Source of the DNA: an uncultured bacterium
GTDB lineage: Bacteria; Krumholzibacteriota; Krumholzibacteriia; LZORAL124-64-63
DNA: 61,217 nt
NCBI GenBank assembly: GCA_965363725.1
Contig: CBDTUS010000002.1
Span: 1 to 61,217 of the forward strand
Reading direction: 5' to 3'
Part shown: one piece after another, positions 2,890-18,317 of the stretch
Position numbering within the stretch: the first letter of the stretch is position 1
How the letters are laid out: each line of letters begins with the position of its first letter
Notes under the pieces: model-generated
The model's database searches: none
What the model was told of the DNA's origin: nothing
Seen by the model: the letters and a program-made list of their open reading frames with translations, nothing else
Made by a program: the position numbers and the translations under genes

Positions 2890-3966
2890 ATGGATCAGGT
2901 ACTGAATATTTTGGCCAGCTTGAAAACCGCGATATGGACCGCGGCCCTGGTCGTCGGGGTCATCGTGATCCTGGGAATCCTGAACCGCTACCTGCAACGC
3001 AACTCGGCGGAGATGACCGGGCGCCGCTTCCGCAACCAGCTGATCATGACCGGCGCCCTTTTCATCGGACTGCTCACCATTATTCTGGGACTGCCCATCG
3101 AGACAACCACCCGCGGCCAGTTGCTGACCCTGATCGGGATCATCCTCTCCATAGGCATCTCCTTGAGTTCGTCCACCATCCTGAGCAACGCCATGGCCGG
3201 CATCATGCTCAAAACCGTGCGGAATTTCCATTCGGGGGATTTCGTGACCGTCGAGGATTATTTCGGGCGCGTCACCGAACGCGGCCTTTTCCACACCGAG
3301 ATCCAGACCCCGGACCGCGACCTCGTCACCCTGCCCAACATTTACCTGGCCTCTAATCCCGTGACAGTGATCCGTTCGTCCGGAACCATAGTCAGCGCCA
3401 CCGTCTCGTTGGGTTACGACCTTCCCCAGACCACGATCAAGAAGCTGCTGCTCCAGGCCGCCGAGAGCATCGAACTGCAGGACCCCTTCGTCCAGGTGCT
3501 GGAGCTAGGGGATTTTTCCGTCCTGTACCGGGTGGCCGGCCTCCTGCAGGAACCCAAAAAGCTCCTGGCCTTCCGGTCCCGCCTGCGGTCGGCCATCCTG
3601 GAAACCATGCACCAGGGCGGCGTGGAAATCGTATCCCCCCATTTCCGGAATATCCGCCAATTCGAACCCCAAAAAGCCTTCATTCCGGCACCGGTCCGCA
3701 CCCCGAAGGAAAAGACGACTGATGCCGCCCCGGTCGACGTGGTGTTCGACAAGGCCGAGGTCGCCGAATCCCTGACCGCCCTCAAAAAGGAGCGGGAGGA
3801 AGTGGACGGACTGCTGAAGGAAGCCCGTCAGGCCGGCAAGGATGCCAAGGAGGAGGAGGAGAAACAGCAGGCGGACCAACAGGTGGCCGAACTCGAAGCC
3901 AGGAAAGAAAAACTCGTCGCCGACATCAACGAGACCCAGGAGAAGGGCAAGGAACAGGACACCTGA
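2890..3966 (+). CDS. Mechanosensitive ion channel, MscS family
   Basis: N-terminal TM helices, then GDFVTVEDYFGRVTERGLFHTEIQTPDRDLVTLPNIYL (MscS beta-domain pattern). Long Lys/Glu-rich C-terminal tail. GGAG lies a few nt upstream of the ATG. Confidence 0.8.
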   Translation: MDQVLNILASLKTAIWTAALVVGVIVILGILNRYLQRNSAEMTGRRFRNQLIMTGALFIGLLTIILGLPIETTTRGQLLTLIGIILSIGISLSSSTILSNAMAGIMLKTVRNFHSGDFVTVEDYFGRVTERGLFHTEIQTPDRDLVTLPNIYLASNPVTVIRSSGTIVSATVSLGYDLPQTTIKKLLLQAAESIELQDPFVQVLELGDFSVLYRVAGLLQEPKKLLAFRSRLRSAILETMHQGGVEIVSPHFRNIRQFEPQKAFIPAPVRTPKEKTTDAAPVDVVFDKAEVAESLTALKKEREEVDGLLKEARQAGKDAKEEEEKQQADQQVAELEARKEKLVADINETQEKGKEQDT

Positions 3967-3986
3967 TCGATCGGCCGCCCCGCTCT

Positions 3987-4427
3987 TCAATATCCCGATC
4001 GCGCCCACGCCACCAGCAGGCTCCGGTCCTCATCCGCCAGATCCGCCTCCGGATGCCCCCACACGTAGCTGCGCAGGGGCATGGTCCGGTCTGTCAGCTG
4101 CTTTTCGATGTCGCGCAGATACAACCCGCGGGTCTCCAGGTCGAACAAAGGCCACTGGGAAAAGTTCAGGTCGGCACGTCCGGTGTCCACGTGCCGCACC
4201 AGCCACCAGGAAATCGGGGCGACGCGGCTATACCAGGGCCAATTCGTTTCGTGGGAATGACAGTCGTAGCAGGCCCGCTTCAGGATATCCTTGACCGCTG
4301 CGGGCGCCACCAGATCGGCCTCCACCTCGGGGTTGGTTCGGTGAACGGGAACCAGTTGGATCAGCAGGAACAGCGCCGCCAGGACGGCGGCGCCGATCAG
4401 AAACCTGCGGTTCGAGAAAAGATCCAA
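3987..4427 (-). CDS. Haem-binding-domain protein (single CxxCH, membrane anchored)
   Basis: N-terminal hydrophobic anchor. CYDCHSHETNWPWYSRVAPISWWLVRHVDTGRADLNFSQW matches the Haem_bd (PF14376-type) signature as I remember it. Confidence 0.75.
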   Translation of the reverse strand: MDLFSNRRFLIGAAVLAALFLLIQLVPVHRTNPEVEADLVAPAAVKDILKRACYDCHSHETNWPWYSRVAPISWWLVRHVDTGRADLNFSQWPLFDLETRGLYLRDIEKQLTDRTMPLRSYVWGHPEADLADEDRSLLVAWARSGY

Positions 4428-4441
4428 GACTACCCTGCCAG

Positions 4442-5200
4442 CTATTTGTCGAATTGTGCGAGGATCTCCCGCGCCTGTTCGCTTTCCGGATCCAGTTCCA
4501 AGGCTTTCTTCGCACTGGCGATGGCCCCATCCTTGTCCCCCTTGAAGATCAAGACCTTGCTTTTCATGATGTGGGTGGTCACGTCTTCGGGATCCATCTC
4601 CACGCCCAGGTCCAGGACCTGGACGGCGCCATCCATGTCGCCTTGCCCCTGGGCCAGGGCTTCGGCCAAACTGGTCAATACCATCGGACTGAAATCATAG
4701 GAACCGGAACCGTAATATTGCTCGCGCAGCTCGCGGTACCGGGCGATGCCGATTTCCACGCCGTTCTCCTCGATGGTGTCGAGCAGGACGTCGTTCAGGG
4801 TCCGGGGGTCTTCCAGCCCCCGATGGCAGGTGATGCAACGCACCCGGCCGCCGCCCTCGCCGACCGCCGCCGGCAGCAGTTCGCTGTTGATGGTGCGGGT
4901 CATCGCCATCATTCCCCGGGCAGCCTCCTTGTGATCGAGCTCGTCACTGGCCCAATCGATGCTGTCGAATTCTCCGGGCTCCCTCTGGATGTGGCAGAAC
5001 GTGCATCTTACTCCCAGGGACGTGGAGAAATCACGCATGGTTCCCAACAGCTGGCGCTTACCGATGTCCTGGGGGAAGACTTTCAGATTGGTGAAGGTGT
5101 CGGGGATTTCTGCCATGGCCTGGACGGGACACAAAACCAGAAGAAGAGCAATTAGCACCCAACCGGGAACTGAAAAGCGAAGGGACCGATTGATAGTCAT
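4442..5200 (-). CDS. Dihaem c-type cytochrome of the reaction-centre-cytochrome-like family with TPR-like C-terminus
   Basis: Track ORF 4442..5245 trimmed to MTINRSL... (signal peptide ending VQAMA). Two CxxCH (CTFCH, CITCH). The block LKVFPQDIGKRQLLGTMRDFSTSLGVRCTFCH resembles the PF02276-like family common in non-phototrophs. The C-terminal helical repeats look TPR-like. Confidence 0.75.
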   Translation of the reverse strand: MTINRSLRFSVPGWVLIALLLVLCPVQAMAEIPDTFTNLKVFPQDIGKRQLLGTMRDFSTSLGVRCTFCHIQREPGEFDSIDWASDELDHKEAARGMMAMTRTINSELLPAAVGEGGGRVRCITCHRGLEDPRTLNDVLLDTIEENGVEIGIARYRELREQYYGSGSYDFSPMVLTSLAEALAQGQGDMDGAVQVLDLGVEMDPEDVTTHIMKSKVLIFKGDKDGAIASAKKALELDPESEQAREILAQFDK

Positions 5201-5387
5201 GACAGCTCCATCGGGTTGAACGGGTTCGGAATGACTCGATTTCACTATTAGACATGAAAACCGGAATTTCCTTTCCGGTCAAGGCGCCCGAGTGACTCCT
5301 CCAAAAAAACCGGGGAAAAAAATCCGAATCATGATAGCCTGAAGGCCTCAGTGACCCCGGTCTACCTGACTTTAATGGAGGAAACTC

Positions 5388-6414: not shown

Positions 6415-6479
6415 TACCCCTCTGTTTCGGGGTGAAGTTCCCCCATTTGCAACAAATCCCATCCCTGCTGTAGGTTTTG

Positions 6480-6600
6480 AAAACTCATAGTTAATTAGTA
6501 GCAATTAGTTGCAAACAATAAGGTTATCTATAGTTTTTTTCGTTTTTCCCTTGCGTTTTCCCTACCCTGGACGAAAATTAACTTAGTTAACATTCAACGA
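6480..6600 (+). promoter_or_regulatory. AT-rich promoter/operator region upstream of the MarR-led operon
   Basis: Only AT-rich stretch in the neighbourhood. Dyads GCAATTAGTTGC (6501..6512) and TTAAC-TTA-GTTAA (6578..6590). TATAGT (6529..6534) is a possible -10. No function has been tested. Confidence 0.4.
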
Positions 6601-6608
6601 GGTTAAAT

Positions 6609-7151
6609 ATGGATCAATTGGACAAAACCCTCAGCGAAAACATCAGGATCATGGCCCAGGTCGTCGCTGACATCTGCCAGCGCAACACCCGTAAAATGGC
6701 CAGCCCCATCCACCTGACCGCCAACCAGTTCACGATCCTGAGAGTCCTGGCCTGCGAGGGCGAATATCAGACCGGCGACCTGGCCCGGCTGCTGGACATC
6801 AGCAGCGCCGCCATCAGCAAGAACATCACCCGACTGGTGAAACTCGGGTTGGTTTCCCGTAAAGCGAAACCCGAGGATCGCCGCAGCCTGGATATCGTTC
6901 TGCTCAAGAACGGGCGGAACATCGTCCGGGAATTCGACCGGATCCTCGCCGAAAAACAGAAACACGTGATGGACAGGCTCTCCCACCAGGAAAAGGAGGC
7001 CCTGCTCTCCCTGGTGCAGAAGGTCATCAACTACACCGTCGCCGAGGAACAGGACATGGACCTGATCTGCCTGCAGTGCGGAGGCAACTGCGGGGACAAC
7101 TGCGTGATCGAATCCTGCAGCGGCCTGTGCGCCCTGCAGGATAAAAAATAG
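6609..7151 (+). CDS. MarR-family transcriptional regulator with C-terminal six-Cys tail
   Basis: Winged-helix block LTANQFTILRVLACEGEYQTGDLARLLDISSAAISKNITRLVKLGLVSRKAKPEDRRSLDIVLL. Extra C-terminal CLQCGGNCGDNCVIESCSGLC. Confidence 0.8.
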   Translation: MDQLDKTLSENIRIMAQVVADICQRNTRKMASPIHLTANQFTILRVLACEGEYQTGDLARLLDISSAAISKNITRLVKLGLVSRKAKPEDRRSLDIVLLKNGRNIVREFDRILAEKQKHVMDRLSHQEKEALLSLVQKVINYTVAEEQDMDLICLQCGGNCGDNCVIESCSGLCALQDKK

Positions 7152-7231
7152 CCCCAGGCCAATCCGCCGGGGCGAAACATGGGTGTTCGGACACACGGGT
7201 CCGGACAAGGAGATCCTAGGAGGACAACATC

Positions 7232-8137
7232 ATGGTCAGCCGTCGGGATTTTTTCAAAATCACCGGAACGGCCGCGGGCACCGCGGCCCTGACCGCGGTC
7301 GGGGCCGAGGCCTCGGGACCGCCGCACGATCTCGATCCGGACAGGTTCGGGGTATTGACGGACACCACCCTGTGCATCGGCTGCCGCCGCTGTGAATGGG
7401 CCTGCGCCGAGCAGAACGACCTTCCCCACGGCAGCTTGGATTCCTTTGGCGACACCAGCGTGTTCGAGGAAATGCGCCGTCCCCACCGCGACGCCTACAC
7501 CGTGGTGAACCGGTACTCGCCACCCGCGGGTTCGGACAAGCCCCTGGACGTCAAGGTGCAGTGCCTGCACTGCGAGCACCCGGCCTGCGTTTCGGCCTGC
7601 ATCGTGGCCGCGCTGGAAAAATCGCCCCAGGGCCCGGTGATCTACGATCCCTGGAAATGCATCGGCTGCCGGTACTGCATGATCGCCTGCCCATTCCAGA
7701 TTCCGGCCTATGAATACGATGATCCGCTGACGCCCAAGGTCATGAAGTGCACGATGTGCGCCGAGCGGACCCTGGAGGAGGGCCGTCCCCCGGCCTGCGT
7801 GGAGATGTGCCCCCCCGAAGCCCTGGTTTTCGGCCGCCGGTCCGAACTGTTGGAACTAGCACACAACCGGATGGCGGAAAACCCCGGACGCTATCACCCC
7901 GAAGTCATCGGTGAGCACATTGCCGGCGGCACCTCGTGGCTGATGCTCTCGGACCGCCCGCCCACCGAGATCGGCATCCCCGACCTGCCGGACGAAAGCC
8001 CGGCCGTCATCACCGAAACCATCCAGCATGGGATCTTCAAGGGTTTTTCCGGTCCCCTGATGCTGTTCGGGGTGCTGGGCATCCTGATGAAATCGTCCAG
8101 CGACAGGCGCAAGGAAAAGGAGGAAGACGATGTCTGA
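7232..8137 (+). CDS. Tat-exported 4x[4Fe-4S] ferredoxin-type subunit (HybA/NrfC/HmcB-like), operon A
   Basis: Twin-arginine signal MVSRRDFFKITGTAAG. Four Cys clusters (CIGCRRCEWAC, CLHCEHPACVSAC, CIGCRYCMIACP, CTMC...ACVEMCP). C-terminal hydrophobic anchor. Confidence 0.85.
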   Translation: MVSRRDFFKITGTAAGTAALTAVGAEASGPPHDLDPDRFGVLTDTTLCIGCRRCEWACAEQNDLPHGSLDSFGDTSVFEEMRRPHRDAYTVVNRYSPPAGSDKPLDVKVQCLHCEHPACVSACIVAALEKSPQGPVIYDPWKCIGCRYCMIACPFQIPAYEYDDPLTPKVMKCTMCAERTLEEGRPPACVEMCPPEALVFGRRSELLELAHNRMAENPGRYHPEVIGEHIAGGTSWLMLSDRPPTEIGIPDLPDESPAVITETIQHGIFKGFSGPLMLFGVLGILMKSSSDRRKEKEEDDV

Positions 8138-9452
8138 ATCCCTGCACCGAGGCGGCGCCGCCGTCCTCAACGGGCCGACCGATACCACACCCCCGGCAAC
8201 GGCCGACGCGGGTAAAAACGGTGGCCATGATCATCATGAAGCCTTGCCCCTGGCAGGTCGGTCGGCAGTTCCCTTCTGGACTCCCGGGGTGGTAGTCGTG
8301 GCGGTCCTGGCCGCCTGCGGGCTGGCAGTTCTCGCCGCCCGGCTCGTCTTCGGGCTCGAGGCGGTGACCAACTTCGACGACCAGTTCCCCTGGGGGATCT
8401 GGATCGGTATCGATGTGGCCTCCGGCGTGGCCCTGGCCGCCGGCGGTTTCACCATGGCCTTCATCGCCCACGTCCTGAACAACGAACGATACCACGTCCT
8501 GGTCCGGCCGGCCCTGCTCACCGCGGCCATCGGCTACACGTTCGTCGGACTCGGGGTGGCCATCGACCTGGGCCGTTACTACAGCATCTGGCACGTGATG
8601 ATGCCCTCGATGTGGCAGGGCAACAGCGTCCTGTTCGAGGTCGGCATGTGCGTCATGATCTATCTGACGGTGCTTTATATCGAGTTTCTGCCCATCGTGT
8701 GCGAGCGGTTCATCGGCCGGGTGAACCTGCCGGGCGTGCTCGGCAAACTGAACGGCTTCATCGACGGCCTGCTGCGATTCCTGGACCGGACCCTGGGCAG
8801 GTTCATGAGCTTCTTTATCATCACCGGCGTGGTGTTGTCCTGCGCCCACCAGTCCTCGCTGGGTTCCCTGATGGCCATCGCTCCCAGCAAACTGTACCCC
8901 CTGTGGCACACCCCGGTGCTGCCGCTCCTGTTTCTGCTTTCGGCCTTTTCGGTGGGGCTGTCCATGGCCATATTCGAATCGATTCTCGCCTCGCGGTCCT
9001 TCAAGCGGCCGATCGAAATGCACGTGCTCAGTCCGCTTGCACGGATGATCCCCCTGCTACTGGTCCTCTATTTCGCGGCCAAGGTCATCGACCTGATCAA
9101 CCGCGACGCCTGGCCGCTGCTGTTCCAGGCCAACGTGCGCGCGGTCATGTTCTGGATCGAGTTGGGCGTGGGCGTGATTCTCCCGACCTTCCTGTTCCTC
9201 AGCCATCGCCTTCGAAGACGGCCCGGTTGGCTGTTCGCCTCGGCAGCCATGGTCGTATTCGGGGTGGTGCTCAACCGGTTCAATGTCTTCGTCACCGGCT
9301 ACACCCCGCCTTACGCCACCGAGAGGTACTTTCCCGCCTGGACGGAGGTCATGCTCACCGTGGGCATGATCTCGCTCATGGTGCTGCTCTACCGGATCTG
9401 GGTGTTTGTCTTCCCCGTCCTTCCCGCCGAGGAGGAGGTCGAACATGCGTAA
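8130..9452 (+). CDS. NrfD/HybB/HmcC-type polytopic membrane subunit, operon A
   Basis: ~10 hydrophobic helices. FDDQFPWGIWIGIDVASGVALAAGGF block, colinear with the copy at 12027..13307. Start overlaps the FeS gene stop by 8 nt. Confidence 0.85.
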   Translation: MSESLHRGGAAVLNGPTDTTPPATADAGKNGGHDHHEALPLAGRSAVPFWTPGVVVVAVLAACGLAVLAARLVFGLEAVTNFDDQFPWGIWIGIDVASGVALAAGGFTMAFIAHVLNNERYHVLVRPALLTAAIGYTFVGLGVAIDLGRYYSIWHVMMPSMWQGNSVLFEVGMCVMIYLTVLYIEFLPIVCERFIGRVNLPGVLGKLNGFIDGLLRFLDRTLGRFMSFFIITGVVLSCAHQSSLGSLMAIAPSKLYPLWHTPVLPLLFLLSAFSVGLSMAIFESILASRSFKRPIEMHVLSPLARMIPLLLVLYFAAKVIDLINRDAWPLLFQANVRAVMFWIELGVGVILPTFLFLSHRLRRRPGWLFASAAMVVFGVVLNRFNVFVTGYTPPYATERYFPAWTEVMLTVGMISLMVLLYRIWVFVFPVLPAEEEVEHA

Positions 9453-10593
9453 CGTATCATTAATTCCGATGATGGCTCTCGGACTGCTCATGACGGCCAT
9501 CGCCACCGGAGGCCTCGCCCAGATCGTGGACCCCACTCACCCGGAGGACCACAGGGACACCCACAAACCCGACCGGGTCAAAGCTTGCGGGAGCTGCCAC
9601 ACCTGCCAGACTCCTACTTCCGACAACCCATGTCTGGTGGATTGTCCCCGCCACGGTGGCCATTTCTATGGCGAGCACCAGGCGGACGAAGGGCCCGAGA
9701 TCGTCATCATCGACCAGCTGGCGGACCTCTACCGCCCGGTGGTTTTTGCCCACCGCCTCCATGCGGACATGTCCTACATGAGCGGGGGGTGCGAGAACTG
9801 TCATCATTACTCGGAGCAGTCCGGGACCATTCCCCCCTGCCGCGAGTGTCACGACGAGACCAAGGGTCCGGTCAGCCTGAACCAGCCGGCCCTCAAGGGT
9901 GCCTATCACCGGCAATGCATGAACTGTCACATGGACTGGAGTCACGAAAGTGCCTGTGGGTTCTGTCATGAACAGGTTCACGAAGGCATGGGTTCGGCGG
10001 TGGCCGACACCACCGACATCGTGGGGATTCCCCATCCCAAGATCGAGGCGGTTCCATCCTACACCTACGAGACGAGCTATGACCAGGGGGCCATGGTCAC
10101 CTTCCATCACGACCAGCACGTGGACATGTTCGGGCTCAATTGCGTGGACTGCCACCGGGGTGACAGCTGCGGCCGTTGCCATGATCCCGGCAAGGCTCAG
10201 CAGCAGAGGCTGGATCACGTCACCACCTGCTGCGCCTGCCACGGGGAACGGGACTGCGACTTCTGCCATTCCCCGTTCGCCCAGCCCCAGTTCGAGCACA
10301 CCCGGACCGCGGGATGGTCCCTGAAACCCTACCACACCGATGTCGCCTGCAACACCTGCCACGGGTCGCCCCAAGATTTCCGGACCCCTTCTGACAGATG
10401 CGCGTCATGCCACATCCACTGGGCGGCCGGTGCCTTCGATCACAGTGTCACTGGGCTGACCCTTAGCGAAGATCACCTGGATCTGGATTGCAGCGACTGT
10501 CACCTGGATATGAATTTCAGCAACCGACCGGGCTGTGAAGACTGCCACGATGAACCCCTGTCCCCCCAAAGATTGCCAGGGACCAGGATGTAG
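9445..10593 (+). CDS. Periplasmic multihaem cytochrome c, 13 CxxCH motifs, operon A
   Basis: Track ORF 9406..10593 trimmed to MRNVSLIPMMALGLLMTAIATGGLAQ (GGAGGAGG RBS; overlaps the NrfD stop by 8 nt). Motifs: CGSCH, CENCH, CRECH, CMNCH, CGFCH, CVDCH, CGRCH, CCACH, CDFCH, CNTCH, CASCH, CSDCH, CEDCH. Confidence 0.9.
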   Translation: MRNVSLIPMMALGLLMTAIATGGLAQIVDPTHPEDHRDTHKPDRVKACGSCHTCQTPTSDNPCLVDCPRHGGHFYGEHQADEGPEIVIIDQLADLYRPVVFAHRLHADMSYMSGGCENCHHYSEQSGTIPPCRECHDETKGPVSLNQPALKGAYHRQCMNCHMDWSHESACGFCHEQVHEGMGSAVADTTDIVGIPHPKIEAVPSYTYETSYDQGAMVTFHHDQHVDMFGLNCVDCHRGDSCGRCHDPGKAQQQRLDHVTTCCACHGERDCDFCHSPFAQPQFEHTRTAGWSLKPYHTDVACNTCHGSPQDFRTPSDRCASCHIHWAAGAFDHSVTGLTLSEDHLDLDCSDCHLDMNFSNRPGCEDCHDEPLSPQRLPGTRM

Positions 10594-10603
10594 GGACCAA
10601 GCG

Positions 10604-10633
10604 AAAGGGGCGGCCGACCGGCCGCCCCTTTTT
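10604..10633. terminator. Bidirectional intrinsic terminator shared by the two convergent cytochrome genes
   Basis: AAAGGGGCGGCC-GA-CCGGCCGCCCCTTTTT: ~10-bp GC stem flanked by an A-run and a T-run, inside the 56-bp gap between the stops at 10593 and 10650. Confidence 0.8.
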
Positions 10634-10649
10634 CCTGATGGATATTATG

Positions 10650-11822
10650 CTAGTCGGAAATGCCCGGACCGAAGCTGGCGTGCCGGGTCCAAGTGCGCCC
10701 GTCGTCGTGGCATTGGTCGCAGGTGGAATGCGAGCCCACACCCCCCACATGGCAGTCCCTGCAATCGCCCTCCGCATGGACCTCGTCGAGCACCACCCCG
10801 GTGACCCCGTGGTTGAAATGCTTTTCGTCCCAGCCCTCGAAATGGCAGGTCACACAACGAGGGTCGTTGGCCGTGTATTTCCCGCGCGTGTGATGGCAGT
10901 CGTTGCACTGCAGGACCTTGTGGTAGGGCTGCAATTCCCAGCCGACCTCGGCGTGGTCGAACAGGTCACGGGAATTGCGGCCGTGACACTGCTCGCAACC
11001 CTGGTCCTCCTCATGGCACTGATAGCATGTATCATGAAGATCGATATCGCTGATCAGCCCCAGCGGATGGGACTCGATACCGTGGACATGGCAACTGCTG
11101 CAGGTTTCGTCCCGGTGGCAGACGCTGCAATCCCGGTCGTAGAGATTCACGTGATTGCTGTGGTGGAACGGCACCTTGTCGCCGTCGTCGTAATCGGTTT
11201 CGAAAATGATCAAATCCTTGACGGCCAGGGCCGGCTGATGGGCGGCATGGGGCAGGCTCGCCATCTCGGCGTCGGTCATCCCCCCCACCTTCTTGCGGTG
11301 GCAGAATTCGCAGTGGGTTTCGTTGTCCCATTCGGTATGACAGCTCAGGCATTGGCGATGATAAGCCGCCTTCAGGCCAGGTTCGACCTTGCCGTGCATG
11401 CTTTCCGGAAGGTGACATTCCTTGCAGGCGGGGTGGCCGGCCGAGGGGGGCATGAAGTGGTGGCATTCCACACATCCCTTGGACATCGCGCTCATCTGGG
11501 CATGGATTTCGTGATTGAAATAGACGGGATCGTAGACCTTCTCCATTTCATCCATGACCATGATCTTCTGGCCCGGTAGCCCCCCGTGGCCTAGCGCCCC
11601 CTGCGACCGCTGGCAGAATTGTTTGCTGAGGCACAGATCATCCCTGGTGGGAAATTCACAGGTGTGGCAAAGAGTACAAACCGTATTCTCACCGGAGGTG
11701 GGGACGTAGTCCTCGTAGGCATGAGTCGGCGAACCGCAGGCCAAGAGGCCAACCCCGATCATCAAGCCTAGGACCCACCGTTTTGGTGAACGGACAAGCT
11801 CCGGGTTGCTGAAAATTCGCAT
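10650..11822 (-). CDS. Periplasmic multihaem cytochrome c, 13 CxxCH motifs, operon B
   Basis: Signal/lipoprotein-like N-terminus (..GVGLLACGSP). Motifs: CTLCH, CVECH, CKECH, CLSCH, CEFCH, CSVCH, CSSCH, CYQCH, CEQCH, CNDCH, CVTCH, CRDCH, CDQCH, colinear with 9445..10593. Confidence 0.9.
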   Translation of the reverse strand: MRIFSNPELVRSPKRWVLGLMIGVGLLACGSPTHAYEDYVPTSGENTVCTLCHTCEFPTRDDLCLSKQFCQRSQGALGHGGLPGQKIMVMDEMEKVYDPVYFNHEIHAQMSAMSKGCVECHHFMPPSAGHPACKECHLPESMHGKVEPGLKAAYHRQCLSCHTEWDNETHCEFCHRKKVGGMTDAEMASLPHAAHQPALAVKDLIIFETDYDDGDKVPFHHSNHVNLYDRDCSVCHRDETCSSCHVHGIESHPLGLISDIDLHDTCYQCHEEDQGCEQCHGRNSRDLFDHAEVGWELQPYHKVLQCNDCHHTRGKYTANDPRCVTCHFEGWDEKHFNHGVTGVVLDEVHAEGDCRDCHVGGVGSHSTCDQCHDDGRTWTRHASFGPGISD

Positions 11823-11824
11823 GT

Positions 11825-11971
11825 CTAATCCTTTCGGGGCGGCTTCTTGTGACCTTTTTTCGGGGATTCGAGGGTTTTCGTGAATATCACGAACAACACG
11901 AAGTAGAGAAGGACCACCATGTATTCCAGGCCTTTGGTGGCAAAAATATCGACGAATGTATATTCATCCAT
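11825..11971 (-). CDS. 48-aa single-TM protein between NrfD and cytochrome genes (operon B only)
   Basis: Track ORF 11825..12064 overlaps the NrfD gene, so it was trimmed to the internal ATG: MDEYTFVDIFATKGLEYMVVLLYFVLFVIFTKTLESPKKGHKKPPRKD. AAAGGTGAAG RBS-like sequence upstream. Its stop lies 2 nt before the cytochrome ATG. Confidence 0.45.
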   Translation of the reverse strand: MDEYTFVDIFATKGLEYMVVLLYFVLFVIFTKTLESPKKGHKKPPRKD

Positions 11972-12026
11972 GACTTCACCTTTCGGTGGGAGTGGCCCAG
12001 TCCGCAGGCCCCTCCGTTGCGAAATC

Positions 12027-13307
12027 CTAGTGGTCCATATCCCGCGCCCAGGCGGGAGGATCACCCAGCACTGGCATCCGGTTGACGATCCAGCGCAAGG
12101 CCCAGATCTCCAGGCAAATGATGGTCGCGGTGACCCAGTATTCCGCCCAGTGGGGAATGTAGGGGGTTTCCGCGAACCAGTTGAAGGCGATGACCGAGAT
12201 ATTGATCCGGTTCAGGATGACTCCGACCAGGGTCAAAGAGGCGGCCACCTTGACCAGTTTCACGTTTTCCGTTTGGACCGCCCGATAGAACAGATTGAGA
12301 GGCACCAGCACGAAACCGATGACTTCGACCAGGAACCAGGCGCCCCACCCCGTCAGCAGCAGACCCCACTGCTGGCCATGGATCACTACCAGCACCTTCA
12401 GGAAGAAATAGACGAACATGGCCCCGGCGCAGATCTTGCCCAGCCCGATCGTGATGTCGTCGTGGCGATGGTGCAGATCCTTGCCCACCCGGGAGGCGAA
12501 GACCTTGTGGCTGATGGAACCTTCGACAATCACCATGGACAGCCCGGCAAATACGCTGGAGACCAGGAAAAGCACCGGAATAAATTCGGTATACCACAGG
12601 GGATGGATCTTGCTTTCCGCCATCAGGAACAAGGCGCCCAGCCCCGACTGGTGCAGGGTCGACAGGGTGATCCCGAATATCACCGAAGCGATGGTCAGGC
12701 CCCCGACGATTTTCCGCAGCCTCTTCATGCCCAGCCATTCGGCCACCGCGGGTGAAAACTCGATGAATTCCGCCGCCATGTAGAGCATGAAGTGCCAGGC
12801 CACCAGGAACAGCACCGAACTGACCCCGAAGTTGTTGCCGATGATGGGATTGATGATGTTCCAGGGGCGGCCCAGATCCAGCATCAGGGCCCCCGCGTAA
12901 AACAGGTAGGCCAGGAAGCCGTTCAGGACCACCGATCTGACGATGACGTGATAGCGCTGGCGCCCGAGAATGTAGACGATGAAGGTCATCACGTAGGCCC
13001 CACCCGCCAAGGCCACGCCGGTGACGACATCGAACCCGATCCAGATGCCCCAGGGGTTATCCTGGTCCAGGTTGGTGATGGCGCCGATACCATAGATGAA
13101 GCGGATCGCGATCAGGACCAATCCGACCGCCACGATGATCGATGAAATCACGTTGAAGGGAGTGAGCAGCTTCCCCTTGGGCTTCAGTTCGCCCAGCATG
13201 AAACTCAGAAAATCCCCCACGCTGCCGATGCGGGGTGGCTCAGGCTCCATGGATTCGACCTCGATAGGGACGACCCGTGGAGCACTGGAAGCCTGGGATT
13301 CACTCAT
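12027..13307 (-). CDS. NrfD/HybB/HmcC-type polytopic membrane subunit, operon B
   Basis: LDQDNPWGIWIGFDVVTGVALAGGAY block and ~10 helices. Start overlaps the FeS gene stop (ATGA). Confidence 0.85.
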   Translation of the reverse strand: MSESQASSAPRVVPIEVESMEPEPPRIGSVGDFLSFMLGELKPKGKLLTPFNVISSIIVAVGLVLIAIRFIYGIGAITNLDQDNPWGIWIGFDVVTGVALAGGAYVMTFIVYILGRQRYHVIVRSVVLNGFLAYLFYAGALMLDLGRPWNIINPIIGNNFGVSSVLFLVAWHFMLYMAAEFIEFSPAVAEWLGMKRLRKIVGGLTIASVIFGITLSTLHQSGLGALFLMAESKIHPLWYTEFIPVLFLVSSVFAGLSMVIVEGSISHKVFASRVGKDLHHRHDDITIGLGKICAGAMFVYFFLKVLVVIHGQQWGLLLTGWGAWFLVEVIGFVLVPLNLFYRAVQTENVKLVKVAASLTLVGVILNRINISVIAFNWFAETPYIPHWAEYWVTATIICLEIWALRWIVNRMPVLGDPPAWARDMDH

Positions 13308-14191
13308 GATTCATCTCCAGGGTTGTCGATTTCCGCGATCTGATCTTCTTCTTCCTCTTCGGTCTTGATGTAGCGCATGCCGTTCAGGAACGCCGGCCAC
13401 AGGAGAAACACTACCGGGACCGCGTAGAGGAATTCCTGAGTCAGGGCGGGGACTGGTTCATGGCTCAGGTCATTCCGGAATCCGATCTCGTCGAAGGGCA
13501 CGGCGGAGAGATAGATCCAGCTCGTACCCCCCACCTCGTCCTGCCCGTAGATGTGATCCTCGTACCTGTCGGGGTGGTCGGCGACACGGTTCTGGGCGAT
13601 CCGCACCATTTCCCGGCGGGTGCCGAACTCGAGGGCGTCGACCGGGCACGATTCGACACAGGCCGGAATGCCGCCCTCATCGAGACGTTCATGGCACAGG
13701 ATGCATTTCTGGATCTTGGGATTCGCGCTGTGGTATTCGAACTTGGGCACCACGAAGGGACACGACACCATGCAGAAACGGCAGCCCATGCACTTGGACG
13801 CACGCCAGATGACCGGGCCATCTTCCGTCTTCCACATCGCCTGGGTCAGGCAGGCGGTCGAACAGGCCGCCTGATTGCAGTGCATGCACTGCTTCTTGAC
13901 AAAAATCTCGCCCGCGTCGGTATCGAAACGGTTGACAACCGTCCACTGGTCAGGGGTCATATCCCGCCTACTGTCAAAGACCGATTTGTCCTTGTTGTCG
14001 GGGACGGGCAACCCGTTCTCGGTGGCGCAGGCCACCTCGCAATTACGACAGCCAATGCATCGCGTCGTATCGACGAGGACCGAAACGAATTCTTTACTTT
14101 CCAGAGCGGCCTCGGCTTTGCCTGCCGACGCCACGCCTACGGCCGAAGCTCCGGCGAGGCACAGGTTCTTGAGGAAATCCCTTCGTTCCAT
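13304..14191 (-). CDS. Tat-exported 4x[4Fe-4S] ferredoxin-type subunit, operon B
   Basis: MERRDFLKNLCLAGASAVG twin-arginine signal. CIGCRNCEVAC, CMHCNQAACSTAC, CMGCRFCMVSCP, CILC...ACVESCP. C-terminal hydrophobic anchor and acidic tail. Confidence 0.85.
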   Translation of the reverse strand: MERRDFLKNLCLAGASAVGVASAGKAEAALESKEFVSVLVDTTRCIGCRNCEVACATENGLPVPDNKDKSVFDSRRDMTPDQWTVVNRFDTDAGEIFVKKQCMHCNQAACSTACLTQAMWKTEDGPVIWRASKCMGCRFCMVSCPFVVPKFEYHSANPKIQKCILCHERLDEGGIPACVESCPVDALEFGTRREMVRIAQNRVADHPDRYEDHIYGQDEVGGTSWIYLSAVPFDEIGFRNDLSHEPVPALTQEFLYAVPVVFLLWPAFLNGMRYIKTEEEEEDQIAEIDNPGDES

Positions 14192-14202
14192 GAGAAGCCT
14201 CT

Positions 14203-14592
14203 CTAGTCGTCGACGATGATCTCGTCGGGTTTGATCTCCATGGCGATTTCGCCTCGCTTCTTCATGCCGTCGATCAGGACCGTCCGGATCAGGGCGCAGG
14301 CATCGACGATTCTTCGGTCCGCCGGACGGTAAAAGACCTTGTGTCCCTCTTTGCGGGCCAATACGAGATGCTTGCCTTTCAGGGCGCTCAAATGGCGGCT
14401 GACCGTGGAAAGGGGAGCGCCGAGGATTTCGGCCAGTTCACCAACGCTCAATTCTCTCTTGTCCAGACAAGCCATGATGGCCAGCCTCAAGGGGTTGGCT
14501 AGAACTCGGCAATGGGCGGCGTGGATTTCGAAGATTTCAAGGTTCCGGACTTTCATAAGCATGAACATGTGAAAGTTTTCAATCTTTGTCAA
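14203..14592 (-). CDS. ArsR/SmtB-family transcriptional regulator (start uncertain: TTG 14592 or ATG 14568/14556)
   Basis: HCRVLANPLRLAIMACLDKRELSVGELAEILGAPLSTVSRHLSALKGKHLVLARKEGHKVFY is the ArsR-type wHTH. It lies 11 nt upstream of the FeS gene on the same strand. Confidence 0.8.
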   Translation of the reverse strand: MTKIENFHMFMLMKVRNLEIFEIHAAHCRVLANPLRLAIMACLDKRELSVGELAEILGAPLSTVSRHLSALKGKHLVLARKEGHKVFYRPADRRIVDACALIRTVLIDGMKKRGEIAMEIKPDEIIVDD

Positions 14593-14647
14593 TAATAAAA
14601 CAGGATTGCATAATTATTTAACAATCTCTACTTTTTTGATGTGATTT
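14593..14647 (-). promoter_or_regulatory. AT-rich putative promoter/operator region of the ArsR-led operon
   Basis: Minus-sense sequence ATTGTTAAATAATTATGCAAT is an imperfect ATTG...CAAT dyad, followed by TTGACA. Assigned only from position and composition. Confidence 0.3.
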
Positions 14648-14668
14648 CGGGAGGCCCCGGGCCTCCCG
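14648..14668. terminator. GC-rich stem-loop between the redoxin gene and the ArsR-led operon (possible terminator/insulator)
   Basis: CGGGAGGCC-CCG-GGCCTCCCG, 9-bp stem. The T-run lies only on the + side, so termination of the minus-strand redoxin transcript is uncertain. Confidence 0.4.
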
Positions 14669-14708
14669 TATGTTATTTTATTTCAATTTATTAGAGAAGT
14701 AACCGGGT

Positions 14709-15317
14709 TCAGTGCAGGTACTTCACGCTGCAACCGTAAGGAGGTGTTTCGGCTGTTTTGATGGTTTTGCCCTCTGCGAGGGTTGCCAAAGCCACGGCCA
14801 CGTAGTTCGTATCCCCCAGCTTGTCGGCCGAGCGGTTGTCGTCGATGGCCCCGTTGTAGGCGATCGTCCCGTCCGGAGTGATGATGAACATGTGGGGCGT
14901 GGTCTTAGCTCCATAGGCCCGGCCCACTTCGCCGGCTTCATCGATCAGCAACGGGAAGGGAATCTTGTATTCCTTGACCGCCTTCGCGTTTCTATCCAAG
15001 CCGTGCCCCTGCTTTCCCGGAGCATTGGAATTTATCGCCAGCCAAACCACGCCTTTTTCCTCCACCGCGGCGAAGGTTTCATTCATGGTCTGGTGGTTGG
15101 CGTGATGCTTCTTGATGAAGGGGCAGTCCGGGTTGAACCATTCCAGGACGACGGTGAAGCCCTCGTCCAGGTAGGCTTGCAGGGAATGCTCATTTCCTTC
15201 CGTGTCATTCAGCGTGAAACCCGGAGCTTCATCGCCGGGGGCCAATGCCGCCCCGGCCATGGTGGCGATGAGTAATACGGAGGAAAGGGACAGGATGGTC
15301 AAAGTCGTGCGCAGCAT
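14709..15317 (-). CDS. Exported thioredoxin-fold (redoxin/AhpC-TSA-like) protein
   Basis: Signal peptide, then APGFTLNDTEGNEHSL...VVLEWFNPDCPFIKKHH...TTPHMFIITPDGTIAY...YGCSVKY, a thioredoxin-like fold pattern. Confidence 0.75.
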   Translation of the reverse strand: MLRTTLTILSLSSVLLIATMAGAALAPGDEAPGFTLNDTEGNEHSLQAYLDEGFTVVLEWFNPDCPFIKKHHANHQTMNETFAAVEEKGVVWLAINSNAPGKQGHGLDRNAKAVKEYKIPFPLLIDEAGEVGRAYGAKTTPHMFIITPDGTIAYNGAIDDNRSADKLGDTNYVAVALATLAEGKTIKTAETPPYGCSVKYLH

Positions 15318-15337: not shown

Positions 15338-16186
15338 CTAGGGTGTGGCGGCCGCGAAGGGAACCGCCGGGAAATCGACACGGTAAACACGGGTATTCCC
15401 GCTTTCTTCTTCAACCGAGATCAACCCCCGCACGGGGCCCACGGTATCTCTTTTGGGGCGGAAGCGAAGGGTGAGGCTTTCGCCCCGGCCGTCGTTCAAC
15501 AGGTCGACCAGCGGGCCGCAATCCCCCGTCGGCATGAACGTCAGACTCGCGGCTCCGGGATGGCTCAAGTGGAAGGTCGCGCCTTCCCAACCGGTCTCCA
15601 AGATCCCGTCGGGCACAAGCGCCGGTAGACGATCGGCTGCCACGGAGGCGATATTCGGCTCGCGGTTCCGAATCCGGTCGCTGACCGGCACGGCCACCGA
15701 CAGGGACGTCCTGCCGGGAACGCACATGTCCTTGCAGGCCAGCCATTGGACATCGGCCTGGATCGTAACCGACAGCCCGACCGTGGCGTTGGAGGGTGCC
15801 CCCAACTTCTGGATCAGCACCAGTTCATCGTGGTAGACATGATCCAGGATGTCTCCGGCCGAAACATACCGTTCCGGGGCAGGCCACTGCAGCCCGCCGG
15901 CCACCCAGCCTTCCGGCAGGTCCAGGTCGATGCCGGGAGGGTAGCCTGTGTCGTTGCGGCCGGACCAGTAGAGGTGCCAGCCGTCGGCCAACGCGAACCG
16001 CCAGACCAGGGTCACCGACTCGCCAGGTTCCGCTGCCTCGGGAACGATCTGGGCCGTCACCACCACCGGGTTTTCTTCGGTCGGGACCTCTTGGCCACCG
16101 GAACAACCGGCACAAAAAAGGGACGGCCCGACCAACAAGACCGCCAGCATGAGCATGTATATAAGTCGGTTCCAGAACATGGCCAT
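15338..16186 (-). CDS. DsbD N-terminal (alpha) domain-like lipoprotein
   Basis: Trimmed to MAMFWNRL.... Lipobox ..LFCAGC. ADGWHLYWSGRNDTGYPPGIDLDLPEGW...LQWPAP and WLACKDMCVPG match the DsbD/DsbC N-terminal domain pattern. Confidence 0.75.
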   Translation of the reverse strand: MAMFWNRLIYMLMLAVLLVGPSLFCAGCSGGQEVPTEENPVVVTAQIVPEAAEPGESVTLVWRFALADGWHLYWSGRNDTGYPPGIDLDLPEGWVAGGLQWPAPERYVSAGDILDHVYHDELVLIQKLGAPSNATVGLSVTIQADVQWLACKDMCVPGRTSLSVAVPVSDRIRNREPNIASVAADRLPALVPDGILETGWEGATFHLSHPGAASLTFMPTGDCGPLVDLLNDGRGESLTLRFRPKRDTVGPVRGLISVEEESGNTRVYRVDFPAVPFAAATP

Positions 16187-16313
16187 CAGGATAGGTTGGG
16201 CCCCGGCCTCCCGCCACCCCGTGACCAAATTGTTGCCTGATGACCGGGCCCCGGCTATGCTCCGGAGGTTGAATGGACCTTGTCCCGTTTCCCCTTACCC
16301 GAGGAGCCGCCTC

Positions 16314-16839: not shown

Positions 16840-17682
16840 CTAGTCGAACGCCCCTTCGTTCCGGGCCTCGAAATCGGTCAGATCCTTTTCGTGGCCCGGT
16901 TCTATATCCACGATGATCGACGGGCTGCCGTCGGCGAACATGACCTTGCGGTAACCCGCCGACACCTCCTCGAGATCGGCCGTATCCTTGCCGATCCTGG
17001 CCGTTCCCTCCAGCACGCACACGCAGGTGAAGCCGTCGCCCTTGTTGACCGCGATGGTGGTGCCGGTCAGTTCGATCCGCCCCTCGCTGGTCAGGATCAG
17101 CAGATGCTCGCCCGCAAAGTCGGGCCCGGTCTTCACCAGCAGTTCCCCGTTCGTGACGGTGGAGGTGAGCGTCGCATGGTTCCTGTCCGGACCCGTGGTC
17201 AGGGTGACGTCCGAATCGCGGATGATCCCAAAGACCATGACGTCGCCCAAGACGAGTTCCAGTTCCGCAGTGGCGGGCACCACGATGCGGGCTTCCGGAA
17301 CGATCAGTTCGGCGAGACGGTCGACGTCCGCGGCATCCACGGATTGGCCGTTGACCAGGATGGCCCCCGATCCCGTCACCGATTTGAGTTCCCAGGAAGG
17401 ATCGCCGCCGGTCAGCAACAGAAAGGCCAGAATGGCGGCCAGGACGGGAACTGCTGCGACCCACAGACGGCGGCGGTTTCCGCCCCGGTCCAACGGCACG
17501 ATGTTGTCGAGGGGTCCGCCATCGTCCCGGACGTCGATTTCACCGGCCATTTCCCCGGAGATGAATTCCGAGCGCAGCCTCTCCCGGAAGGCGTCATCGG
17601 GACGCACCTCATCGAGACCACGGAGAGCCTCCTGGAGCCGCCGCTCTTCCGGTGTCAGGTTCATGTCGTTACGCTCGCTCAT
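16840..17682 (-). CDS. Anti-sigma factor-like protein (single TM, FecR-like periplasmic domain)
   Basis: Start overlaps the sigma gene stop (4 nt). Cytoplasmic N-terminus, TM (LWVAAVPVLAAILAFLLL), beta-rich C-terminal domain. Confidence 0.55.
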   Translation of the reverse strand: MSERNDMNLTPEERRLQEALRGLDEVRPDDAFRERLRSEFISGEMAGEIDVRDDGGPLDNIVPLDRGGNRRRLWVAAVPVLAAILAFLLLTGGDPSWELKSVTGSGAILVNGQSVDAADVDRLAELIVPEARIVVPATAELELVLGDVMVFGIIRDSDVTLTTGPDRNHATLTSTVTNGELLVKTGPDFAGEHLLILTSEGRIELTGTTIAVNKGDGFTCVCVLEGTARIGKDTADLEEVSAGYRKVMFADGSPSIIVDIEPGHEKDLTDFEARNEGAFD

Positions 17683-18317
17683 ACCAATCCATCCGGTAAC
17701 AGTTCACGCAGTTTCAGCAACGCCCGGGAATATCGTTTGCGGATGGCGGGCGCTTCATCGCCGGTGATGCCGCTGATCTCCTCGTGGGTCAGACCCTGCA
17801 GGTCATGCAGGACGACCACCAGGCGCATCGCCTCGGGCAATTGGTCGATCGCCTCACCGAGCAATCGGTCCCGGTCCGCTTCCAGGACCCGGTTGTCGGG
17901 ATCGGCCGATCCGCTGGCCATACCCGCGGCCATCTCAGGCTTGGCGTCCAGCGAGCTGGTCTGCTTGGCCTGACGGCCTTCTCGCGACCGCCACTTTTCG
18001 CGGCACAGGTTCGCGGTGATGGTCATCAGCCAGGGGCCGGGATCCCGGGCGGTGTCGAGCTGGTGGGCGGCCCGGTGCACCCGCAGAAAAACCTCCTGGG
18101 TGACGTCTTCGGCCGCGGTTCTTTCGCCGAGCAGGCGGAAGGCCAGATTGTAGATCTGGCTGAAGTGATGGTCGAATAGGGCGGCCAGGGCCTGAGGGTC
18201 CCTCTGCCGGACTTTTTCCAGTACCGCAGCGCTCAGGGTCGAGCTGGGGCGAGGTCGCAGAGAGCCACCCGGCACACCGTCATCGCGGCGCGGCTTCGTG
18301 GAATCGCCCATGCTCAC
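17679..18317 (-). CDS. ECF-type RNA polymerase sigma-70 factor
   Basis: Region 2 (AEDVTQEVFLRVHRA...PWLMTITANLCREKWR) and region 4 (LPEAMRLVVVLHDLQGLTHEEISGITG...IRKRYSRALLKLR). Confidence 0.85.
   Translation of the reverse strand: MSMGDSTKPRRDDGVPGGSLRPRPSSTLSAAVLEKVRQRDPQALAALFDHHFSQIYNLAFRLLGERTAAEDVTQEVFLRVHRAAHQLDTARDPGPWLMTITANLCREKWRSREGRQAKQTSSLDAKPEMAAGMASGSADPDNRVLEADRDRLLGEAIDQLPEAMRLVVVLHDLQGLTHEEISGITGDEAPAIRKRYSRALLKLRELLPDGLV

Follow-up and report, generated by a model that had tools for sequence, protein, structure and literature searches.

Mirror-image operons of a Krumholzibacteriota bacterium link a 13-haem cytochrome family to iron-sulfur and NrfD subunits: candidate electron gates between the quinone pool and the periplasm

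Introduction

Which function do two mirror-image operons serve that encode electron-carrying proteins and lie apart from any enzyme with which these proteins could work? This question is raised by a 61,217-nucleotide stretch of DNA (contig CBDTUS010000002.1 of GenBank assembly GCA_965363725.1, positions 1 to 61,217 of the forward strand; hereafter the window) from an uncultured bacterium of the phylum Krumholzibacteriota. Between positions 6,480 and 14,668 the window carries two operons, A and B, each with genes for a transcriptional regulator, an exported iron-sulfur (FeS) protein, a membrane protein of the NrfD family and a c-type cytochrome with 13 haem-binding motifs (cyt13). The answer that we favour, with a probability of roughly 0.6, is that each operon encodes a self-contained redox complex of the inner membrane that works as an electron gate between the quinone pool and the periplasm, with menaquinol oxidation and electron export as its main direction. 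The novelty lies in the family of 13-haem cytochromes and in the strict association of its genes with those for FeS and NrfD proteins.

Two anciently diverged copies of one module

The nine open reading frames (ORFs) of the two operons were confirmed in the ORF list where an initial annotation of the window had placed them. That annotation had also proposed profile searches on each subunit, which assign MarR, ArsR, Fer4, NrfD (PF03916) and class III cytochrome c domains to the products; domains were searched with Pfam, and subfamilies were scored with curated profile models that have equivalog cut-offs. The genes are as follows (aa, amino acids; Tat, twin-arginine translocation; TM, transmembrane).

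6609-7151, + strand: MarR-family regulator with a Cys-rich C-terminal tail (ICLQCGGNCGDNCVIESCSGLC); Pfam MarR E 1.4e-14
7232-8137, + strand: FeS subunit of operon A, HmcB/HybA-like, Tat-exported, 4x[4Fe-4S]; Fer4_11 and TAT_signal matches
8130-9452, + strand: NrfD-type membrane subunit of operon A, HybB-like, about 10 TM helices; PF03916 E 3e-28
9445-10593, + strand: 13-haem c-type cytochrome of operon A, 382 aa, Sec signal; 13 CxxCH motifs, class III cytochrome c domain
10650-11822, - strand: 13-haem c-type cytochrome of operon B, 390 aa, possible lipobox LLAC; 13 CxxCH motifs, class III cytochrome c domain
11825-11971, - strand: 48-aa single-helix membrane peptide with the motif F..I..TKG.EY, found in B-type modules only
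12027-13307, - strand: NrfD-type membrane subunit of operon B, HmcC-like; PF03916 E 1.7e-14
13304-14191, - strand: FeS subunit of operon B, Tat-exported, 4x[4Fe-4S], C-terminal TM helix; Fer4_11 match
14203-14592, - strand: ArsR/SmtB-family regulator with three conserved Cys; Pfam ArsR/HTH_5 E 1e-10, HTH_metalloreg 73 bits (cut-off 55)

ORFs, Pfam matches and the 13 CxxCH motifs of each cytochrome agree with the initial description of two mirror-image regulator/FeS/NrfD/13-haem operons. Overlaps of 4-8 nt, described for the genes within both operons, occur at three junctions (8 nt between FeS and NrfD and between NrfD and cytochrome in operon A, 4 nt between FeS and NrfD in operon B), but the remaining four junctions are gaps of 80, 11, 55 and 2 nt.

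The FeS, NrfD and cytochrome proteins of A and B are colinear over their full length, with amino acid identities of 43, 34 and 36%, respectively, and the two regulators are unrelated to each other. DNA alignment of the copies is restricted to three short patches of 64-78% identity, and therefore they represent neither a recent duplication nor an assembly artefact, as the initial annotation had held when it proposed an old duplication. Judged from their sequences, operons A and B are anciently diverged paralogous modules. Since their NrfD subunits fall closest to different subfamilies, HybB for A and HmcC for B, the pair would be more than a simple local duplication. Cytochrome A shares about 40% identity with a clade from Zixibacteria and Acidobacteriota and 36% with cytochrome B, which has its own orthologue clade, separate from that of A. 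These comparable distances indicate that the paralogy predates these lineages or that one copy was laterally acquired.

It is very improbable that the twin layout has no function, being a redundant or decaying duplicate or a mirror image created during assembly. The symmetry itself, and nothing more, speaks for this explanation, which is opposed by the intactness of all ORFs of both operons with a gene-like GC content at third codon positions, by the few patches of DNA identity, by the separate orthologue clades and by the invariance of all cofactor ligands. Moreover, the layout and the hairpin between the cytochrome genes recur in independent metagenome-assembled genomes (MAGs) from different samples, which together with the limited DNA similarity rules out both an assembly artefact and a recent duplication.

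A cytochrome family strictly linked to FeS and NrfD genes

Homology searches gave 311 matches for the cytochrome of copy A and 235 for that of copy B, and a profile search gave 1360 clusters at E<=1e-20; clusters of 50% identity numbered 678 at E<=1e-30. In the source records these homologues are always named 'cytochrome c3 family protein' or 'hypothetical'. Members of the family share a length of about 375-395 aa, 13 invariant CxxCH motifs, the signature CxxCHxCxxPT...C...C at haem 1, the motif K[GA]AYHRQC at haem 4 and adjoining FeS and NrfD genes, and both window cytochromes have all these traits. A scan of one genome per species found a cyt13 relative in at least 561 species genomes, mostly of the Fibrobacteres-Chlorobi-Bacteroidetes (FCB) group. 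Loci were mapped and lineages labelled in the best 80 of these genomes, which are assigned to Krumholzibacteriota, 'Fibrobacteraceae', Gemmatimonadota, Neomarinimicrobiota/Fidelibacterota, Calditrichota, Ignavibacteria, Zixibacteria, Bacteroidia, Verrucomicrobia, Lentisphaeria, Phycisphaerales and Thermodesulfobacteriota. The homologue search and a cluster look-up for a cultured carrier with omics data returned MAG proteins only.

In these genomes, cyt13 is linked to FeS and NrfD genes in every assessable locus (74/74). The order is FeS-NrfD-cytochrome in 70 loci, so that the cytochrome gene is last rather than first, as noticed initially for the window, and cytochrome-FeS-NrfD in four; six further loci are cut by contig ends, and in none is the FeS-NrfD pair absent where there is room for it. 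The flanks of the module are wholly different between genomes, and the three genes therefore behave as an autonomous unit. This neighbourhood analysis, suggested in the initial annotation with the convergent twin in mind as well, recovered the gene order broadly but found the twin confined to one lineage. Close Krumholzibacteria MAGs (loci L006/L009, L012, L013 and L014) keep it with the same flanks, namely a DsbD_N protein and a redoxin next to B and a 4HBT thioesterase with two small cytochromes next to A, and the layout recurs in L017 with a spacer of 1.9 kb. The twin layout is thus lineage-specific, and A and B are found singly in other genomes: A-type modules alone with the MarR gene (L001, L004) and a B-type module alone with the ArsR gene and the small peptide (L007).

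Other arrangements were also observed. Two tandem cyt13 genes follow a single FeS-NrfD pair in L047, L059, L077 and L087, and a second FeS-NrfD pair lies nearby in L057, L060 and L061; in several phyla, therefore, the module tends to expand locally.

The 13-haem cytochrome: wire or enzyme

Translation of cytochrome A is assigned to the ATG at 9445, which has a strong ribosome-binding site, rather than to the TTG at 9406, and its orthologues measure 376-397 aa. Each window cytochrome contains exactly 13 CxxCH motifs and no variant of them in a motif scan, in which CxxCK, CXnCH and other atypical haem motifs were not found in either protein. In an alignment of 132 homologues the 13 motifs are invariant, and 12 conserved His residues outside the motifs plus either H78 or the invariant M109 provide 13 candidate distal ligands. 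Having one candidate ligand per haem, all haems can be six-coordinate and no obvious open catalytic haem is left. The cytochrome thus appears to be an electron wire rather than an enzyme, with haems that all appear six-coordinate.

Residues ~77-177, which hold haems 2-5, are the only part that resembles solved proteins, namely the c3-like domain with four haems at the C-terminus of HmcA (16 haems) and of the nine-haem cytochrome (9Hc), with E-values of 3e-13 to 6e-7. An AlphaFold2 model built from the 132 homologues reached a predicted local distance difference test score (pLDDT) of 75.9 and a predicted template-modelling score (pTM) of 0.61. Its comparison with the Protein Data Bank (PDB) in Foldseek aligned 120-144 columns to 9Hc or HmcA, the remainder having no convincing match. 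A full-length structural analogue was thus not obtained, as only the c3-like domain was matched and GSU1996 scored weakly (probability 0.41).

Towards the C-terminus (about residues 295-375) lies a dihaem unit that recurs 11-31 times in giant multihaem proteins of 1000-2321 aa (e.g., P0241, P0243, P0244). The unit seems to serve generally in the construction of very long cytochromes, and its repetition in such proteins fits a module for building wires rather than an active site. A further peculiarity is found beside haem 1, where three extra cysteines (C54, C63 and C67, in CxxCHxCxxPT...CLxxC) are invariant in 131-132 of the 132 homologues. This region corresponds to residues 48-67 of cytochrome A (window 9585-9650) and has its match in cytochrome B. 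The cysteines could form a disulfide, bind a metal or contact the FeS subunit.

If the cytochrome were instead itself a terminal reductase or oxidase, the FeS-NrfD pair would be its quinol-oxidizing module, as in MccA/MccCD or NrfA/NrfBCD, and candidate substrates would be sulfur, nitrogen or metal(loid) compounds sensed by the ArsR-type and Cys-rich regulators. The octahaem MccA does work with an FeS and NrfD module (PMC8076601), both regulators have conserved cysteines, the ArsR protein is weakly similar to the BigR and TsoR models, and the three extra cysteines beside haem 1 could be seen in this light. An enzyme of this kind is nevertheless unlikely given the 13 conserved candidate ligands for 13 haems, the regularity of the haem motifs and the kinship of the dihaem unit to giant wire-like proteins. 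Similarity to the MccA, NrfA, OTR or HAO folds was also not found in sequence and Foldseek searches.

The FeS and NrfD subunits

Both FeS proteins match Fer4_11 (E-values of 1e-17 and 4e-19) and contain four Cys cluster motifs, a Tat motif (RRDFFK and RRDFLK) and a single C-terminal hydrophobic helix, which spans residues 268-286 in the A copy; in the B protein the Tat signal model TIGR01409 scores above its cut-off. For each NrfD protein about 10 hydrophobic helices are predicted. This helix layout matches that of the HybA/HybB and NhcB/NhcC group of Calisto and Pereira (PMC8076601).

The best curated model for both FeS proteins is HmcB (322 bits for A and 334 for B, cut-off 420), followed by HybA, on which the A protein reaches 248.7 bits (cut-off 263) and the B protein less. 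The NrfD proteins differ more clearly in their affiliation: the A copy scores 365.8 bits on HybB (cut-off 450) and 272 on HmcC, and the B copy 417 bits on HmcC (cut-off 550) and 259 on HybB. Every subfamily score of the FeS and NrfD proteins lies under its equivalog cut-off. A sequence search for solved structures of the NrfD subunit gave no match at E<=1e-3.

Residues of the quinone site and proton path were compared in HybB numbering. R89, Y99, E148 and H184 are invariant in an alignment of seven sequences, composed of Escherichia coli HybB, both window copies and four distant orthologues; the A-type protein carries in addition a 19-residue loop insertion with respect to HybB. According to the summary of Lubek 2019 in PMC8076601, replacement of these four residues impairs hydrogen oxidation by hydrogenase 2 (Hyd-2), an effect relieved by a protonophore. 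Both operons therefore contain the parts of an NrfD/FeS module: a haem-less PF03916 subunit, a Tat-exported 4x[4Fe-4S] partner and the conserved HybB residues.

Comparison with known systems

Whether the two operons are routine members of a characterised complex, the outcome that the initial annotation had set against its own proposal, was checked complex by complex, and the window modules fall outside each of those named below.

NhcABCD of Desulfovibrio is like them in lacking a catalytic subunit and in its parts: a periplasmic multihaem cytochrome of c3 type, an FeS subunit (4x[4Fe-4S]), an NrfD protein with 10 helices and no haem, and a small membrane subunit. All four kinds of part are present in operon B, and the domain of haems 2-5 in cyt13 is homologous to the C-terminal domain of 9Hc. 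Unlike 9Hc, cyt13 has 13 haems: besides this domain, it has a lone haem at its N-terminus, accompanied by three extra Cys, and an octahaem repeat region at its C-terminus. Only ~120-144 of its 382 residues match 9Hc, and the 9HemeCytC model NF045784 gives 37.5 and 28.1 bits (cut-off 640). Gene order (B-C-(D)-A in the window and A-B-C-D in Nhc) and hosts, which for cyt13 are not sulfate reducers, differ too. NhcB and NhcC could be compared via related models only, the B copy scoring 334/420 on HmcB and 417/550 on HmcC (score/cut-off, here and below). The likeness to NhcD is one of kind only: operon B has its conserved 48-aa TM peptide, and operon A has none.

As for HmcABCDEF, no curated model scores higher than HmcB for either FeS subunit or than HmcC for the B-copy NrfD, and HmcA shares its C-terminal c3-like domain with the window cytochromes. 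HmcA has, however, 16 haems rather than 13, and its model NF045713 reaches 52.9 and 41.6 bits (cut-off 400) over the last ~100 residues only. HmcE, a cytochrome b, and the HdrD-like HmcF were not found at 6.4-14.7 kb, in the flanks or in related loci, and therefore a transmembrane link to the cytoplasm is lacking. In E. coli hydrogenase 2 (HybOABC), HybB is the best model for the A-copy NrfD, with its four key residues kept, and HybA is likewise a Tat-dependent FeS subunit with a C-terminal anchor; the A proteins score near the HybA and HybB cut-offs but under them. The differences are that HybO and HybC are absent from the window and from 75 related loci, that a 13-haem cytochrome takes the place of the hydrogenase and that A-type NrfD has its loop insertion.

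Cbc4 (CbcSTU) of Geobacter sulfurreducens also joins a cytochrome c to a 4x[4Fe-4S] protein and an integral membrane protein, and is a proposed quinone:cytochrome c oxidoreductase (bioRxiv 10.1101/2025.04.14.648717). Its cytochrome gene is first, and CbcS is a membrane-anchored tetrahaem protein of the NapC/NirT type that is unrelated to cyt13, which has no Cytochrom_NNT match. Similarity to the remaining complexes is low, and their partner proteins were not found: NrfABCD (NrfC 101/378, NrfD 39/348; NrfA), DsrMKJOP (DsrO 103/200; DsrMK), QrcABCD (QrcC 62/400, QrcD 121/570; QrcAB) and alternative complex III (ActA only at E 0.83; ActAB).

By analogy, the window modules would still work like these complexes despite the mismatch in haem number and fold, the scores below cut-off and the missing partner genes. 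The initial view of an undescribed respiratory module goes too far: the 13-haem family and its strict FeS/NrfD linkage are new, but the combination of FeS, NrfD and multihaem subunits in the absence of a catalytic subunit is an established kind, with Cbc4 and with NhcABCD and Hmc of Desulfovibrio as examples and HybAB of Hyd-2 as a related module (PMC8076601 for Nhc, Hmc and HybAB). Modules of NrfCD and a multihaem cytochrome have been proposed as quinol:acceptor reductases for Melioribacter roseus (Mros1571/1572; PMC3534657) and for groups 4/5 of the Methanoperedenaceae (PMC7327174), and 'two counter oriented operons' of the same composition are mentioned for MBNT15 SHF-111 (PMC9386147). The composition of these three clusters, and the proposed role as quinol:periplasmic acceptor reductase, resemble those of the window modules, although they are annotations only, likened here by composition; the texts consulted give neither their haem numbers nor their cytochrome families, and the MBNT15 supplements did not reveal haem numbers. 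In the multi-omics paper on Melioribacter, consulted for omics data on a cultured carrier, the NrfCD genes go unmentioned. A search of one literature collection for the 13-haem family or for Nhc-like or Hmc-like modules gave nothing specific, and no paper in it describes the 13-haem family.

Separate regulators, a small peptide and a shared terminator

Each copy has its own regulator of a different family, as first annotated, and each regulator is conserved alongside its module. The Cys-rich tail of the MarR protein, C-x2-C-x3-C-x3-C-x5-8-C (at ~7065-7130), is kept in 25 distinct orthologues down to 34% identity, all of which are encoded directly upstream of an A-type FeS-NrfD-cyt13 module. 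These proteins may form a redox-sensing MarR subfamily that binds an Fe-S cluster or a metal. The ArsR protein has no classic CVC site, and its best specific models, BigR and TsoR, score below threshold. Its true start is probably Met13 (14556), as in its orthologues: the three Cys and an MKVRN start are kept in 6/6 B-type orthologues, and the L006 orthologue has 117 aa. Both regulators would thus be dedicated to their modules and use cysteines to sense redox state, Fe-S, persulfide or metal. In the Ignavibacteria/Zixibacteria clade, MarR- and ArsR-type regulators are missing and the module is followed instead by a sensor kinase with CxxCH, a fusion of response regulator and GcvH-like domain and a sigma-54 activator; the haem-motif sensor kinase lies downstream in 12 loci.

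The 48-aa peptide of operon B has an acidic N-terminus, a single helix and a basic C-terminus, and matched nothing in Pfam and NCBIfam. Its orthologues (L006/L009, L007, L012-14, L017, L049, L052, L077) accompany HmcC-like NrfD proteins only, and operon A has no counterpart. In two loci of Fidelibacterota/Neomarinimicrobiota (L070:5193-5903 and L085:5102-5794) a homologue of the peptide forms the N-terminal membrane anchor of a 230-aa protein with a GCV_H-like domain (PF01597). A GcvH-like domain is also tied to the module in L074 (9145-9951), and 16 other loci encode, downstream of the module, a response-regulator receiver joined to such a domain.

Three non-coding elements delimit the operons.

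6415-6608, no strand assigned: promoter/operator region of operon A, rich in AT; imperfect palindromes span 6504-6519 and 6563-6605
10604-10631, no strand assigned: shared bidirectional intrinsic-terminator hairpin, 13-bp perfect GC-rich stem with an A-run upstream and a T-run downstream
14593-14708, no strand assigned: promoter region of operon B; a perfect 10-bp hairpin (14648-14668) separates it from the redoxin gene upstream

The palindromes upstream of operon A are inferred to be the operator of the MarR protein. The terminator hairpin occupies the 56-bp gap between the stop codons of the convergent cytochrome genes, with predicted folding energies of -30 (+ strand) and -33 kcal/mol (- strand), and its stem and flanking A- and T-runs are kept in four related genomes (L009, L012, L013, L014). 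The single bidirectional hairpin of the initial annotation is thus present and conserved, but it is asymmetric because its T-run counts five on the + side and only three on the - side in this window.

Mechanism and direction of electron flow

The proposal of the initial annotation, that the modules connect the quinone pool with the periplasm as conduits, is retained as the best reading in view of the conserved NrfD residues, the 4x[4Fe-4S] subunit, the 13-haem chain and the FeS-NrfD linkage. In such a complex, the haem-less NrfD subunit of ~10 helices would contain the quinone/quinol site and a proton path, and the ferredoxin-like subunit, exported by Tat and anchored by its C-terminal helix, would sit with its four clusters on the periplasmic face of NrfD. 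The Sec-exported cytochrome with 13 bis-ligated haems would prolong the chain into the periplasm, and the complex of copy B would include the 48-aa peptide. Electrons could then pass between the quinone pool, the FeS chain, the 13-haem wire and periplasmic or outer partners. As in HybAB, Nhc and Qrc, the NrfD step would be linked to the uptake or release of protons. Acceptors may be periplasmic cytochromes, terminal reductases or extracellular acceptors. Both copies would have been retained because they are wired differently (A HybB-like, B HmcC-like) and switched separately, A by a MarR protein whose Cys tail probably senses Fe-S, metal or thiols, and B by an ArsR-type sensor with three Cys.

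The remark of the initial annotation that a catalytic partner is not adjacent can be extended, as none was found in the whole window and none is recurrent in 75 related loci. A Pfam scan of all larger ORFs found no molybdopterin subunit, hydrogenase, formate dehydrogenase or NrfA in the window, and a type-I c3 gene was neither found there nor recurrent near the 75 loci, where all-vs-all clustering of flanking ORFs gave no recurrent catalytic neighbour. The larger ORFs of the window yielded only housekeeping proteins, secreted hydrolases and two small cytochromes (3987-5245). In 16 loci of an Ignavibacteria/Zixibacteria-type clade, a CbcL-like fusion of ~650 aa, composed of a multihaem c part and a C-terminal cytochrome b561 (Ni_hydr_CYTB), is encoded directly upstream on the same strand (representative L076:5023-6984), and L007 has one near its module (3362-5329). 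Other recurrent neighbours are ResB/CcsA genes for cytochrome biogenesis, a small c554-type cytochrome and thiol-disulfide proteins.

Oxidation of menaquinol with export of electrons is, by a modest margin over even odds, the main physiological direction, and the module is probably reversible. In favour of export are the heterotrophic hosts, the neighbouring genes (CbcL-like fusion, haem-motif sensor kinase, ResB/CcsA), the failure to find periplasmic dehydrogenases in the window or as recurrent neighbours, and the report of OmcS and Cyc2 in a Krumholzibacteria MAG (PMC7914226). A less likely but serious alternative is that the same architecture runs inward, as a periplasmic-donor:menaquinone oxidoreductase that conserves energy like Nhc, Hmc or Qrc; possible donors would be a hydrogenase or formate dehydrogenase via small cytochromes, or Fe(II) via Cyc2. 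Inward flow is suggested by the closest curated models, HmcB/HmcC and HybA/HybB, which belong to type-I c3:quinone or H2:quinone oxidoreductases (PMC8076601), by the homology of haems 2-5 to the c3-like domain of HmcA and 9Hc, by the apparently complete bis-His ligation, which makes the haems probably low-potential, and by the Cyc2 just mentioned (PMC7914226). It fits less well with the missing genes for periplasmic hydrogenase, formate dehydrogenase and type-I c3 in the window and, as recurrent neighbours, near the 75 loci, with carriers that are mostly organoheterotrophic FCB lineages, and with the CbcL-like neighbour, whose Geobacter counterpart oxidizes menaquinol.

Several points weigh against an outward gate, or against the complex as such. 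Homologues of known direction (Hyd-2 HybAB, Nhc, Qrc) mainly reduce quinone, and by analogy the window modules might do the same; c3-type haems with bis-His ligation are usually low-potential, which favours the reverse direction. Formation of the complex is deduced from operon linkage only, and the AlphaFold2 model of the cytochrome is of moderate quality (pLDDT 76, pTM 0.61) and devoid of haems. Finally, L050 couples a B-like ArsR gene to an A-like module, so that the pairing of regulators with modules is not absolute.

Neighbouring genes

Genes for the two small exported cytochromes are found ~1.3 kb upstream of operon A, both on the - strand, and are syntenic in related Krumholzibacteria MAGs (L006); their products are possible periplasmic partners of the modules.

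3987-4427, - strand: small exported monohaem cytochrome, Haem_bd (PF14376)
4442-5245, - strand: small exported dihaem cytochrome, CytoC_RC-like, with TPR repeats

Operon B is flanked by a secreted AhpC/TSA-redoxin (14709-15317, - strand) and a DsbD_N-domain protein (15338-16228, - strand), which recur beside the module in related loci and are likely thiol-reducing helpers for cytochrome maturation. Just past the DsbD_N gene, an extracytoplasmic function (ECF) sigma factor and a FecR-like anti-sigma factor form a pair (16840-18317, - strand). Farther away, four paralogous secreted proteins of 213-215 aa are encoded on the - strand (30496-31143, 31166-31807, 34611-35258 and 35291-35938). They form two tandem pairs with 38-49% identity and a conserved terminal Cys, and belong to no Pfam family apart from a weak dockerin-like C-terminal match. 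Rfam and tRNA scans of the window were empty.

Significance

The links between the quinone pool of non-proteobacterial heterotrophs and their periplasmic or extracellular partners are largely unknown, and the 13-haem family is a concrete candidate for one of them. As a tentative extension, which we consider rather improbable as it stands, cyt13-FeS-NrfD could be the principal, unrecognised inner-membrane gate between the quinone pool and the periplasm or cell exterior across the FCB superphylum and its neighbours, with two specialised and separately switched paralogues. The lineages concerned may include Krumholzibacteriota, Ignavibacteria, Zixibacteria, Calditrichota, Marinimicrobia and Gemmatimonadota, and the module may be a functional counterpart of CymA, ImcH and CbcL that is built on a haem-less, proton-coupled NrfD subunit. 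In Geobacter, ImcH, CbcL and CbcBA cover different potential windows. The two paralogues may likewise serve different windows of redox potential, or opposite directions of flow, each under its own cysteine-based redox sensor, the MarR protein with its Fe-S-like tail or the three-Cys ArsR protein.

The value of the locus lies in the size and taxonomic range of an unstudied family, its absolute linkage to a proton-coupled module, the separately regulated paralogues and the unusual Cys-tailed MarR protein. The twin layout with separate redox-type regulators represents a natural experiment on the specialisation of such gates. Should the module prove to be a quinol:periplasm gate, the potential for iron, sulfur and nitrogen respiration would have to be inferred differently from MAGs of phyla that are abundant in sediments and water columns.

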